The translations under genes were made by a program, and so were the position numbers. DNA of 64,000 bases from Naegleria gruberi (taxonomy: Eukaryota): NCBI GenBank assembly GCA_000004985.1, contig GG738845.1. The stretch is one strand, 5' to 3'. Shown piece by piece: positions 30,531-35,165 of the stretch (the stretch's first letter is position 1; every line of letters begins with the position of its first letter). The notes under the pieces are model-generated. The model was not told the DNA's origin. It searched no databases and worked only from the letters and a program-made list of their open reading frames with translations.

Positions 30531-33458
30531 ATGAATGACTACAATAACAGTTCCTCTTCTTGTTATTCTCCAATTCATAATGATGCCCCATTTTCTGATG
30601 AATTATGTGGTAGTGAAAACAGCCTTCATTCCGAACTGGATAATAGGATTAAAATTAATGAAAATATGTTAGCATTGGTGAGGGAGTATTTTACAAATCA
30701 TGATTCAAATGAAGATGATCAACTATCATCATCTTCATATTTTAGTAGGGAGAGTAAGGATGATTTTGGATATGGTGAGGATTCAACACAAGTTGTGGTA
30801 GTTGAGAGTGATGATAAATGTGTGACATTTCATATTTCAATATCACCTACAATGTATGGAATGAGTTTGGTAGTGGAACAATTATGTGGATCAATGAGCA
30901 ATGCTATATCTTTTGAATGGAAATTAGACAAATCGTTTAGATTAGTTTTGGATGGAGAGGACATACTGTTGGTGGAACCATTGGAATTGAATATTAATCA
31001 CAATTCATTTGAAATTGATAGAAATTGTTTGAATAGTATGGAAATAGGTTCAATTGGAATTGTAACCATTCAAGTGGGTAAATTTGAAATTTACATTGGC
31101 TTTGTAATGAATGAAACTCTTTACGATGTACAGTTATCAAAGGCTTGTCCAACAACACAGGAAGATGTCCAATCTTTTATATTTACCAATTCAGATGATT
31201 GTATAGATCCAAGCAATATGAAATTATCATATTGCAAATTTGACAAGGATATTTCACTTTTTGAGATTGTGATAGAGAAGGATGATTTTACGTTGTTTAC
31301 ACCCAGATCGGATACGCCTTCTCTTGTGATTCTCTATGATAACAATACTCACAAAATCCCTCTTTCAAGAGCAATCGATATAGGAAGGAAACTGGTATTA
31401 TATTTCCGTTCTGAAGAGCTTGTATTAGAAAATGAAAAGTTGCTAGTACAATTCAACGATTCAAGGCTGTTGAAAAGTTTTGAAATAGATACAGTTTCAA
31501 ATTTGTCAATTGAAGAACCTCACAATGAGGAATGTGCACATTTAATAGATGGTATGAGTTTTAAACATCTCTTCACTGATCTATCGGAAAGAGTTGAGCA
31601 TAAATTCATAGAAATTGCTAAACAATACAAGTACAATGTAGACAGTTTAGGGTTCAATATATTGCAAATTCTCATTTCATTGGGAAGAAGAGAACATGTA
31701 AAAACACTAATTGAAAAAATGGGATTTGATCCAATAGATATGGACACAATTAAATGGGTAGAGTATTTCAAAAATCCAAATGGTATTTCAGAAGATTTCC
31801 TCCTTAAATGTTTTTCCAATTACATTTATTCAAAAGACAATGGGGATGAAATCTCTCTTTCATTACGAGTTAAATCCATCATGTCTAAACTGGCAATATC
31901 AACATTAAATGAGGAGGCAGCAATTAATATTCAGAATTATGTAATCCCTCACTGTTACCTTTCTCATCACTTTTACATTAGTAAGGAAGAAATGTTATCT
32001 TTTAACTCTAATGCAAAATGCCTTTTATTAATTATAGTAGTTAAGGATCATAGTGGCTATTTTAAACTGGGACTATTATTTGGAAAGTGGACTATTATTT
32101 GGAGTGATAACTCATTGGTTCTAACTTTACCTCAACAAGGAAATGAAAAACTGCTCTACACAATTGAAGAGATAGTTTCTGAGAAGAGATTAGAGAAAAT
32201 CACACGAGCTCTTTGTGAAACTATCTGTAGTTGGAATGGAAGAAAGGTGTACGATTTGAAAAGTTGTAATAGTGGTCATTTCATTCTCTCATTTCTGAAA
32301 AAGTCTCTACTCTGGGACACCATTTCGCTTTTACCAAAGAGATATATCATTTCATTTACAAACAACAAAACCGATACATTGAAGGAGTATGAAAATAGAC
32401 CCATCCCACAAATAGGCCAATTCTCAATAGGAAGGTCTAACCTTTTCTCAAGAAGCGATTGTCAATACATAGATTCGGAAAGATTGAAGGATATTATAGA
32501 AAACGTACAAGAATCGCAATTAATTGAGTGTGATGAGTGTGAATTTCTTTCAGAATTGGATTTCATTAGGGATGACATGTTTTTGATTGGTGAAGGAGGT
32601 TTTGGTAAGGTGTTTAAATGTCAAGAAAAAAAAAGAAAAGAGTGGAAGGCTTTAAAAATAGTTGAAAATGATATTGAATACGAATTAAGTGCTGTAAGTG
32701 TTTAGAAATTGACTTGTTTCAAAATAGGAAAGTGTAAAAAATTCATTAATATTAGACATGAGAATTTGGCACCCGTTGAAGATTATGGAATGTTGGAAAA
32801 TGAGCTTTTCATCCTTATGCCTTTCTATGAAGATGGTGATTTGACCACATTTATTAATGAAAAGGGCCACTCCCTGTCTGATAAGAACATTATTCAAATA
32901 TTCCACCAAATAGCAGAATCATTGGCCCACTTGCACAAACTCAAAATTATCCACAGAGATATCAAATTGAAGAATATTTTTGTTTCGAACTATGAAAAGA
33001 TTAGTGGTGATATTCATGTTGTTTTGGGAGATTTTGGATGTTTTCTTGATTTGGAAAGCCAGAATGATAATCAACACTTGTTAGGGTCTGAGAGTTATAG
33101 ACCTCCTGAAAAAGAGCAGACAACTAAGGCCGATGTTTGGAGTCTTGGTGTTTGTATTCTTCAACTAGTGTTAATTCAACAAAAGAGCTCCCTAAATCTC
33201 ACCAGTGAAATTCTCTTTAACCAAGAGGATAAGCAAAAACTTTTCCAATCAATATCTGTAAGTTTTGTAATTTTGAATCAAATAATTTATTCTTCAAAGG
33301 ATTCTGATTTGAAAGATGTTCTCACCAAATGCTTAGACTCAACATTCTCATCTCGCATTGACAGTTATGAACTCTCTAACACTTTGAGAATTCTCACTAA
33401 AGTTTATTCTCCAGCAAAAGCAGGAACACAGAGTTCGTTATCTAAAAACTATTTTTAA
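30531..33458 (+). CDS. Ser/Thr protein kinase with a roughly 720-aa N-terminal region of unknown function. Two exons: 30531..32693 and 32733..33458.
   Basis: The Gly loop IGEGGFGKVFK and ALKIV lie in exon 1. A 39-nt GTAAGT intron follows. The kinase core is HRDIKLKNIFV, LGDFGCF and SYRPPE. All catalytic residues are present. Confidence 0.75.
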
Positions 33459-33540
33459 ATCCTAGTTCATCTTTTTTTCACTTTAAAAAAATACACAATA
33501 TTACTTTTACATTGTACATTACTTTAAATACTTTTTTAAA

Positions 33541-34549
33541 ATGATCAAGACTGTTGCTGTTTTACATCCGGAATTAGTTGATTCCTTGAAAAAGGTTAGA
33601 GAACAAAGAGCCTTCAATGTAGAAGAATGGATCGATAAAAAGACAGATTTATTTAATGATTATATGAAGAGATGTGGTTTGAAGGGTAAGTTTATTGTCG
33701 GTAATCATGGCTGACTTTGTATTTGATAAATTGTACTACACATGATCGGATTGATAAATAGCTTGTCTCGTATCTGTTTCTGGTGGCGTAGACAGTGCTG
33801 TTACATTTGCTTTGGCAGAAAGAGCAATGAGAAAACCAAATTCACCAATTAAACAACTACTTGGTGTTGCTCAACCTATCAAATCAACAGAAAAGATTTG
33901 GAAGAGAGCTCTTGAGCTTGAACAAGCATACGGATCAACAGAAGGTGTTAGAGTTGTCTCAGTTGATCAAAGTGAAATTCACACACAAATTCAAGAAAGA
34001 ACAGAAGAAGCTCTCGGTATTAAGAGTGGAGATTTTGCAAGTGGACAACTCAAATCATATATGAGAACACCTGTTGGTTTCTTTGCTGCTCAATTATTGA
34101 GTCAAGCTGGTTTTCCATGTGTAGTTTTAGGAACTGGTAATTTCGATGAAGATGGTTACTTGTTCTATTTCTGTAAGGCTGGTGATGGTGTTGCTGATGT
34201 TCAATTAATTGCTGATTTGCACAAATCTGAAGTTTTCCAAGTTGGTCATGCTCTTAAAGTTCCACTTTCAATTCTTGAAGCTCCACCAAGTGCTGATTTA
34301 TGGTCTGGTCAAACTGATGAAAATGAATTGGGTTTTCCATATGACTTTGTTGAACTCATGACTGAATTAATGGTAAAGACTGAAGAAGAACAAAAAGCTA
34401 TCAAACAATCATGGAGTCCAGAAGCACTCAATCAATTCGAAGAATTATCTGCTGAAGCCAAACTTGTACATAAGAGAAATAATCACAAGGCCAAGTATCC
34501 ATTGAATCTTAACCTCATTCACCCAGTGGGTGACAATTTTTCTTTCTAA
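33541..34549 (+). CDS. nadE: NH3-dependent NAD+ synthetase, single-domain bacterial NadE type. Two exons: 33541..33685 and 33762..34549.
   Basis: Exon 1 is MIKTVAVLHPELV...CGLKG. After a 76-nt GTAAGT intron comes ACLVSVSGGVDSAVTFALAERA, which is the PP-loop SGGxDS signature, and then ...GTGNFDEDGY..., KSEVFQVG and ELG. The protein is about 310 aa. Neither this ORF nor the flanking sequence contains a nitrilase/glutamine-amidotransferase domain. Confidence 0.85.
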
Positions 34550-34682
34550 ATAAACTTTAAAGAATAAACTTTTTTTCTAACCTTTACAGTTTGCCTTTAA
34601 AGTACTGTTTACAATTGTAGTAAACTACTAAACTTGTAATTCAAACAAAACTAAACTTCAAAAAAAACAACTACTACACAAC

Positions 34683-35165
34683 ATGAATGCCACACACCAA
34701 CAAACAATTATACCAACCTCAAAAAGTTTAGTTCAAACTATTGGCAACCAACAAGTAAAAAGTCTATACTTGTATAATTATTCAAATACTGTGTTCCAAA
34801 TAAGTACATTCTACAAGGACATAGAGGGACAAGATTATGAGGAACAGGTTGACGAAGAGTTATTTGTCAAACCATTTGATTGGTATTTTATAAAACCAAA
34901 AACTCATCATAATCGAGAAATGCACATTCTTGGTATTCAGTTACAAGATATCACACACAATGTCAATAGTTGTACTTTTTTACTGAGTGAACTAGTGACA
35001 AATTTGAAACATTATTGGAAGGATGAAATGCTCAATCTTCACGACATCAAGTACTCTATTGATTTCAATAATTATAGGCAAGATTTGAATGAGAATGACA
35101 ATATTTTTGTAATTACTAAACATGTTGGTGAGAATATTAATTTATATTATTATAAAAATAAGTAA
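34683..35165 (+). CDS. Hypothetical 160-aa protein.
   Basis: A single ORF with compositional coding character. No motif was recognised. Confidence 0.3.
   Translation: MNATHQQTIIPTSKSLVQTIGNQQVKSLYLYNYSNTVFQISTFYKDIEGQDYEEQVDEELFVKPFDWYFIKPKTHHNREMHILGIQLQDITHNVNSCTFLLSELVTNLKHYWKDEMLNLHDIKYSIDFNNYRQDLNENDNIFVITKHVGENINLYYYKNK

Follow-up and report, generated by a model that had tools for sequence, protein, structure and literature searches.

A stand-alone NadE-like gene in Naegleria gruberi and its relatives among eukaryotes and giant viruses

On contig GG738845.1 of the Naegleria gruberi assembly GCA_000004985.1, a stretch of 64,000 nucleotides (hereafter the window) harbours, at 33541–34549 on the plus strand, a two-exon gene for a 310-aa protein that resembles NadE, the single-domain synthetase of nicotinamide adenine dinucleotide (NAD). 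Domain, PP-loop residues and fold all demonstrate that the gene is a member of the NAD synthetase superfamily of PP-loop amidoligases. It falls into a clade of NadE-like proteins from eukaryotes and giant viruses, for which we coined the name E-type. By analogy with characterised enzymes, its most likely function, to which we assign a probability of about 0.6, would be that of an ammonia-dependent NAD synthetase amidating deamido-NAD (nicotinic acid adenine dinucleotide, NaAD). The kind of enzyme is already known, and the gene is public as an unnamed or automatically named protein; what we could not find described is the E-type clade, its active-site signature and its relation to a bacterial sister group, termed B-type.

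Results

A Pfam search assigned residues 32–287 to PF02540 (NAD_synthase; E = 1.1e-33, 116.8 bits, cut-off 21) as the sole domain, and no CN_hydrolase domain was detected in the 310-aa protein by the same type of search. The model TIGR00552 (nadE) was matched with 112.1 bits (cut-off 63.65), and both matches are far beyond chance. The AlphaFold2 model reached a predicted local distance difference test score (pLDDT) of 84.9 and a predicted template modelling score (pTM) of 0.87, with low confidence at residues 185–191, within the active-site stretch. Foldseek ranks 1–39 were taken by single-domain NadE structures (3fiu, 2e18, 1xng, 1nsy) with a probability of 1.00, the target-normalised TM-scores of the top matches ranging from 0.79 to 0.88.

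To assign the active site, residues were mapped on the key-residue table of 11 NAD synthetases with 3D structures (PMC3376133, Table S4). The contacts to ATP, pyrophosphate and Mg (S55, G57, D59, S60, K203, P224, S225, A226, E178, D190, T173 and R150) were all present and invariant in 23 eukaryotic members; S55, D59, S60, E178, D190, K203, T173 and R150 correspond to B. subtilis S46, D50, S51, E162, D173, K186, T157 and R139, respectively. The PP-loop SGGVDS, the signature of (N-type) ATP pyrophosphatases, as read from the sequence, covers aa 55–60 (33779–33796, plus strand), equivalent to B. subtilis Ser46–Ser51. Comparison of 23 eukaryotic relatives revealed that most NaAD contacts are kept as well (Y41, F/Y155, D194, F140, E237, Y184, F185, K187, L228, H290 and K291). 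Several of these positions fall into a family-defining active-site stretch, GTGNFDEDGYLFYFCKAGDG (aa 172–191; 34130–34189, plus strand), which is invariant in 15 family members and comprises Thr173, the Mg ligand Glu178, Tyr184 and Phe185 for nicotinate stacking, Cys186 in place of a universal Thr, Lys187 and Asp190. The C-terminal pair His290-Lys291 (34484–34489, plus strand) corresponds to the deamido-NAD contacts His257/Lys258 of B. subtilis. Taken over the clade, the E-type signature consists of Y41, F140, Q144, Y148, C186, A226, E237, H290 and K291 in a protein of ~285–320 aa, and the Naegleria protein has all of these residues together with the two E-type motifs GTGNxDEDGYLxYFCKAGDG and HK..P.NL.

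NADSYN1 (Qns1) catalyses the final step of eukaryotic NAD synthesis. Since the Naegleria gene and NADSYN1 are both eukaryotic and both contain PF02540, the gene might be pictured as a truncated descendant of the two-domain enzyme that lost its glutaminase domain. We consider this very improbable, and it is already contradicted by several lines of evidence. Neighbour-joining (NJ) trees of 64 and 87 sequences (Kimura distance, 287 columns, 200 bootstraps), whose root position and branching order inside the family are not to be trusted, separated E-type, B-type and tandem-domain forms from all canonical NadE in 179/200 and 199/200 replicates. On the canonical side are also the two-domain enzymes of bacteria and the synthetase domain of human NADSYN1, the latter grouped with Cytophaga 3ilv. 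With the family profile, 3fiu and 2e18 scored 107 and 103 bits and the Bacillus and E. coli types 54–74 bits, compared with 35–48 bits for bacterial two-domain enzymes, 31 bits for the human enzyme (6ofb) and 26 bits for that of M. tuberculosis. The human synthetase domain is only 24% identical to the Naegleria protein, the model PRK02628 gave 21 bits (cut-off 473), and the insertions and the long C-terminal tail specific to NADSYN1 are absent. The tree split and the profile scores together led us to reject domain loss from NADSYN1; the possibility raised in an earlier note on this DNA, that phylogeny would place the gene inside the NADSYN1 clade, was thus not borne out. Within the same trees, the B-type sequences were monophyletic in 200/200 and the viral sequences in 187/200 replicates. 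One of two Acrasis paralogues (paralogue a) grouped with protosteloid amoebae (198/200), which may point to inter-eukaryote transfer or to ancient paralogy.

The glutaminase domain was sought beyond the protein itself. A tblastn search of the 64-kb window with a bacterial glutaminase domain and with that of human NADSYN1 returned no match (best E = 1.3); the human query had been checked against PDB 6ofb, the synthetase part being identical and the glutaminase part showing two differences, at which the 6ofb residues were used. Neither the gene nor its neighbours nor the remainder of the window contained a nitrilase-domain exon that could be spliced to it. The earlier note had described a synthetase domain standing alone, with no glutaminase up- or downstream, and this description holds. 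It could still be argued that the protein serves as synthetase subunit in a glutamine-dependent enzyme of two components, with the nitrilase-like glutaminase encoded elsewhere, given that split forms occur in bacteria and archaea (PMC3376133) and that the 64 kb examined are only part of the genome. We regard such an arrangement as distinctly unlikely: a glutaminase-domain gene was also missing within 3–8 kb of the orthologues at five other eukaryotic loci (N. lovaniensis, Willaertia, Planoprotostelium and two eukaryotic metagenome contigs), and the C-terminus past the HK motif, judged by eye only, is short like that of single-component enzymes.

The best 120 database matches were all single-domain proteins of ~290–340 aa (bar two partial open reading frames (ORFs) of 240 aa) with 54–81% identity to the Naegleria protein (54–80% for members from named eukaryotes). 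Members were found in Heterolobosea (N. lovaniensis, Willaertia, Acrasis with its two paralogues, Percolomonas, Pharyngomonas), Euglenozoa (Euglena longa), Breviatea (Pygsuia), Stramenopiles (Blastocystis), Amoebozoa (Planoprotostelium, Protostelium, Vermistella, Pelomyxa), Alveolata (Colpodella, Selenidium), Preaxostyla (Paratrimastix) and Hemimastigophora (Hemimastix). Long metagenome contigs with family members carried eukaryotic neighbours, e.g., Arf, ubiquitin and CDC50. As a side observation made by eye only, N-terminal extensions resembling mitochondrial presequences occur in P0089, P0031, P0062, P0069 and P0121, including the second Acrasis paralogue, and Lys-rich stretches resembling nuclear localisation signals in P0093, P0095, P0111 and P0116; the Naegleria protein has neither.

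The earlier note had called the enzyme bacterial-type and had read the gene as the signature of horizontal transfer from bacteria. Identity to bacterial NadE, however, amounts to only 20–31%, and when the two motifs invariant in the family were sought in 185,579 species genomes of bacteria and archaea, three distant relatives of 28–30% identity turned up and no E-type copy. The clade is common to many eukaryotic lineages and giant viruses, and its bacterial sister is of a different, multidomain kind, so that neither description could be upheld. Judged from these sequences, the family appears restricted to eukaryotes and giant viruses, being neither a recent bacterial import nor a truncated eukaryotic enzyme. 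The note's other suggestion, a retained ancestral NadE, fared better, inasmuch as the distribution fits an old or ancestral eukaryotic lineage, but this falls short of proof. The gene is old in Heterolobosea. As for the family, either it existed before several eukaryotic supergroups diverged or it was passed between them, with giant viruses as a plausible vector.

Eight giant-virus metagenome-assembled genomes (GVMAGs) in IMG/VR (L016–L023), taken to be viral on the strength of their GVMAG labels in that database, carry the family motifs in proteins with 45–49% identity to the Naegleria protein. Three AT-rich marine contigs (L013–L015; 25% GC) with TFIIB and glycosyltransferase genes contain the gene too, with every residue of the signature. 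A separate set of IMG/VR contigs (L024–L028, 24–424 kb) encodes NadE of the canonical type (29–36% identity to the Naegleria protein) that groups with prokaryotic NadE, in some cases adjoining a sequence of Uhrbacteria from the candidate phyla radiation; these are probably genes of jumbo phages or misbinned bacterial genes.

An exhaustive profile search yielded 372 representatives at E < 1e-30 and included the second subtype, B-type, mostly of 550–1400 aa. B-type proteins combine a NadE-like domain with a 2-oxoglutarate (2OG)-Fe(II) oxygenase, a NadD-like adenylyltransferase and a weak region resembling phosphoribosyltransferases. The adenylyltransferase domain matched best to nicotinate-nucleotide adenylyltransferase (TIGR00482), with 47–52 bits and thus below threshold. 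Named sources comprise Myxococcota (Paraliomyxa, Nannocystaceae) and Vulcanimicrobiota as well as other bacteria and three ascomycetes. Long fusions of 1100–1400 aa are represented by P0138 and P0304 (the latter from Paraliomyxa miuraensis; L012, 6001–9594), and a split version by P0134 and its neighbour in an overlapping two-gene operon (L011, 892–4330). The presence of a NadD-like domain fused to, or in an operon with, the NadE-like part ties this superclade to pyridine-nucleotide synthesis, and the multidomain proteins look like an uncharacterised pyridine-nucleotide pathway. The two subtypes are distinguished by F140, C186, A226 and E237 in proteins of ≤400 aa for E-type and by W140, G186, G226 and a hydrophobic residue at 237 for B-type. 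As E-type keeps more of the canonical residues, it did not simply arise from inside B-type; its ultimate origin may lie either in an ancestor shared with the bacterial proteins or in transfer in either direction.

Two further observations concern these relatives. A bacterial-type fusion of ~1165 aa was found in the ascomycetes Zopfia rhizophila, Tricladium varicosporioides and Halenospora varia (P0317, P0336, P0337); the two analysed in the tree, from Zopfia and Tricladium, fall within the bacterial clade, a placement suggestive of bacteria-to-fungi transfer. Seven proteins of ~550–630 aa (P0136, P0139, P0123, P0218, P0234, P0252, P0265) consist of tandem NAD_synthase pairs, the N-terminal copy of P0136 being devoid of the PP-loop, and may represent a covalent pseudo-dimer of the normally homodimeric enzyme.

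Concerning gene structure, exon 1 (33541–33685, plus strand) runs from the ATG at 33541 to the splice donor and encodes aa 1–48 plus the first base of codon 49, i.e., the N-terminal helices including Tyr41. It is followed by a spliceosomal phase-1 intron of 76 nt (33686–33761, plus strand; GTAAGT...AAATAG) and by exon 2 (33762–34549, plus strand), which encodes aa 49–310, comprising most of the NAD_synthase domain, and ends with the TAA stop codon. The PP-loop begins six codons past the splice junction, and the unspliced frame meets a stop after 57 codons. An exact-sequence look-up revealed that the spliced product is identical to EFC50434.1, XP_002683178.1 and D2UY97_NAEGR, so that the two-exon model of the earlier note, with its 76-nt intron just before the PP-loop and a product of ~310 aa, equals the public annotation exactly. 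The public entry, NAEGRDRAFT_28968 on a 1.56-Mb scaffold, reads "predicted protein" only.

Intron, host-like codon usage, scaffold and eukaryotic neighbours all establish that this NAD-synthetase-type gene is truly host-integrated. Its relative synonymous codon usage correlates with that of the window at 0.89 (0.81–0.96 for 13 other ORFs) and its GC content at third codon positions is 0.22 (0.22–0.31 in the same 13 ORFs), in line with the earlier remark that codon usage matches the surroundings. Three introns interrupt the N. lovaniensis orthologue (76% identity), one of them at the identical position and phase (after GLK). It had been considered whether introns shared across supergroups could serve as a test of age; with three introns in Planoprotostelium, three in N. 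lovaniensis and none in Willaertia, only Naegleria intron 1 is shared, and no deep-age evidence was gained. Synteny between N. gruberi and N. lovaniensis was not seen within ~6 kb of the gene and is uninformative. A recent, Naegleria-specific acquisition from bacteria, or contamination of the assembly, might be suspected from the single-domain architecture typical of prokaryotes. This explanation is scarcely credible and already contradicted, because the intron is shared with N. lovaniensis, codon usage is that of the host, the gene lies among eukaryotic genes on a 1.56-Mb scaffold, orthologues exist in Willaertia, Pharyngomonas, Percolomonas and Acrasis, and no prokaryotic genome among the 185,579 scanned carried the family motifs. 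The note's exclusion of contamination was therefore justified.

The neighbours are unrelated to the gene, as had been stated before: a protein kinase lies 82 bp upstream and an unknown 160-aa ORF 133 bp downstream, and a DEAD helicase and a WD40 protein are found nearby. Four further ORFs of the window are exact N. gruberi proteins. Neither tRNA nor Rfam features were found in the window. Within the upstream kinase ORF (32709–33458), a 42-nt stretch with GTAAGT...AAG (33258–33299) is a possible short in-frame intron, although the ORF reads through. A metagenome contig in ENA ERZ929261 (run ERR1078381; L004/L005) is 99.7% identical to window positions 31495–35055, indicating that a near-identical Naegleria strain was present in that sample.

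Discussion

How might the E-type enzyme work? By analogy with NadE, this stand-alone, presumably cytosolic enzyme would act as a homodimer. The nicotinate carboxylate of NaAD would be adenylated by ATP-Mg, and free ammonia would then displace AMP to give NAD (EC 6.3.1.5), no glutaminase domain being present as ammonia source. NaAD as substrate, ammonia as nitrogen donor and dimerisation are thus properties that we infer from characterised homologues. The NadE reaction is considered most likely because the catalytic apparatus as well as the nicotinate-stacking and adenosine-half residues are kept, and because the sister B-type proteins are linked to a NadD-like domain. Furthermore, N. gruberi makes quinolinate via the kynurenine route (PMC4217691), and since this route ends in NaAD, the organism needs an NAD synthetase activity.

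Several observations weigh against this assignment. Three (nearly) universal NAD synthetase positions are replaced in a family-invariant manner (Asn133→Gln144, Arg137→Tyr148, Thr169→Cys186). In the 11 structurally characterised enzymes, Asn133 and Arg137 contact the pyrophosphate of NaAD and Thr169 contacts the nicotinate, so that an altered substrate is possible. Full-length equivalog models failed as well (PRK13980, 125.6 bits with a cut-off of 255; PRK00768, 80 bits with a cut-off of 250), meaning that the protein is not an orthologue of the prokaryotic groups modelled there. Structurally, the protein matches the Francisella enzyme 3fiu best, and Francisella NadE* prefers nicotinic acid mononucleotide (NaMN). 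One giant-virus lineage has the gene within a sugar-nucleotide cluster, beside a UDP-glucose/GDP-mannose dehydrogenase. Finally, our literature search, incomplete in coverage, yielded no enzymology for any family member.

The first of these points, together with 3fiu, could be explained if the protein were similar to the nicotinamide mononucleotide (NMN) synthetase of Francisella, converting NaMN to NMN, with an NMN-accepting adenylyltransferase completing NAD. The best PDB match by sequence and by fold is indeed 3fiu, annotated as 'NMN synthetase from Francisella tularensis', and both residues that bind the NaAD pyrophosphate are changed in the family (N133Q, R137Y). We nevertheless consider this function unlikely: the margin of 3fiu over Pyrococcus 2e18 is trivial (107 vs 103 bits), 3fiu falls into the canonical tree cluster apart from the family, and the residues for the adenosine half of NaAD (Y41, F155, D194, H290) are kept, 3fiu having a Ser at the position of Y41.

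The viral gene cluster raises the question of whether the protein is an NAD enzyme at all or amidates another nucleoside diphosphate (NDP)-linked carboxylate, e.g., an NDP-uronic acid. The conserved block consists of an unknown 243-aa ORF, the NadE-like gene, a methyltransferase (at some loci) and the UDP-glucose/GDP-mannose dehydrogenase, and is surrounded by GDP-mannose dehydratase, epimerases and glycosyltransferases. Such sugar-nucleotide micro-synteny, conserved in one giant-virus lineage, and the three invariant changes at substrate contacts would both suit an NDP-linked carboxylate. Yet the pyridine-stacking aromatics and the ribose-binding Glu are kept (F140, Y184, F185, E237), only related viruses show the synteny, which is absent from the other viral sub-lineage, the clustered sugar enzymes are themselves NAD-dependent, and the bacterial sister proteins carry a NadD-like domain, which makes this explanation improbable.

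A more far-reaching reading, which we put forward as a tentative and rather doubtful one, would regard E-type as a second NAD-synthetase-like lineage that is independent of NADSYN1, that may date back to the last eukaryotic common ancestor, and that was captured and possibly spread by giant viruses. Q144, Y148 and C186 would then reflect another substrate or chemistry, such as NaMN, another pyridine dinucleotide or an NDP-linked carboxylate, and eukaryotes and their viruses would possess an uncharacterised amidoligase reaction.

The preferred assignment as an ammonia-dependent NAD synthetase has consequences of its own. Many protist lineages and giant viruses carry this conserved stand-alone NadE-like enzyme, and in these organisms NAD synthesis could, if the assignment is correct, be uncoupled from glutamine. 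Should the protein be the sole NAD synthetase of Naegleria, the contrast with the human enzyme would be marked, and in pathogenic relatives the protein could be a candidate for selective targeting. The copies in giant viruses point either to manipulation of the host's NAD supply or to a use of the enzyme in glycan synthesis, and the bacterial sister proteins, with their NadE-like, 2OG oxygenase and adenylyltransferase domains, would themselves constitute a pathway that awaits characterisation. According to the 2012 reference survey of the family, which drew on 16 eukaryotic genomes, all eukaryotic NAD synthetases are glutaminase-fused, two-domain enzymes (PMC3376133). The E-type gene contradicts the statement that this holds for all of them; in the literature, as far as our incomplete coverage goes, we found no description of a eukaryotic or viral single-domain NadE.

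Comparison with known enzymes

Among all proteins compared, the bacterial B-type proteins are the nearest relatives of E-type (32–42% identity), sharing Q144, mostly Y148, and the motifs DLHKSEV and YDFVELY. They differ in being multidomain fusions of 550–1400 aa with an active site that has diverged further than that of E-type. The giant-virus homologues possess the full E-type signature in a single domain of ~286–306 aa; unlike the Naegleria gene, they are viral, intronless and AT-rich and form a clade of their own (187/200).

The single-domain NadE enzymes of B. subtilis (1NSY), P. horikoshii (2E18) and H. pylori (1XNG) agree with the Naegleria protein in fold, in their organisation as one domain of ~250–310 aa, in the PP-loop, in the ATP, Mg and pyrophosphate residues, in most NaAD contacts and in the C-terminal HK motif. 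In contrast to E-type, they are prokaryotic, share only 20–31% identity with it and cluster separately, the Naegleria protein scoring below the NCBIfam equivalog cut-offs. E-type is further set apart by the invariant exchanges N133Q, R137Y, T169C and M140T and by a short insertion before the GTGN strand. A Francisella-type NMN synthetase would be expected to group with the Francisella enzyme, to prefer NaMN and to occur in a genome with NadM in place of NadD. The NadE* of Francisella tularensis (3FIU) is the best PDB match (family profile 107 bits; Foldseek E = 8e-16, target-normalised TM-score 0.88), but its identity is 26–28%, its place in the tree lies outside the family, and it lacks the N-terminal Tyr equivalent to Y41.

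NADSYN1/Qns1 (6OFB) shares the PF02540 synthetase domain with the Naegleria protein at 24% identity and belongs to a different tree cluster. Its N-terminal nitrilase-type glutaminase, ammonia tunnel, insertions and long C-terminal tail have no counterpart in the Naegleria protein, which consists of the synthetase domain alone.

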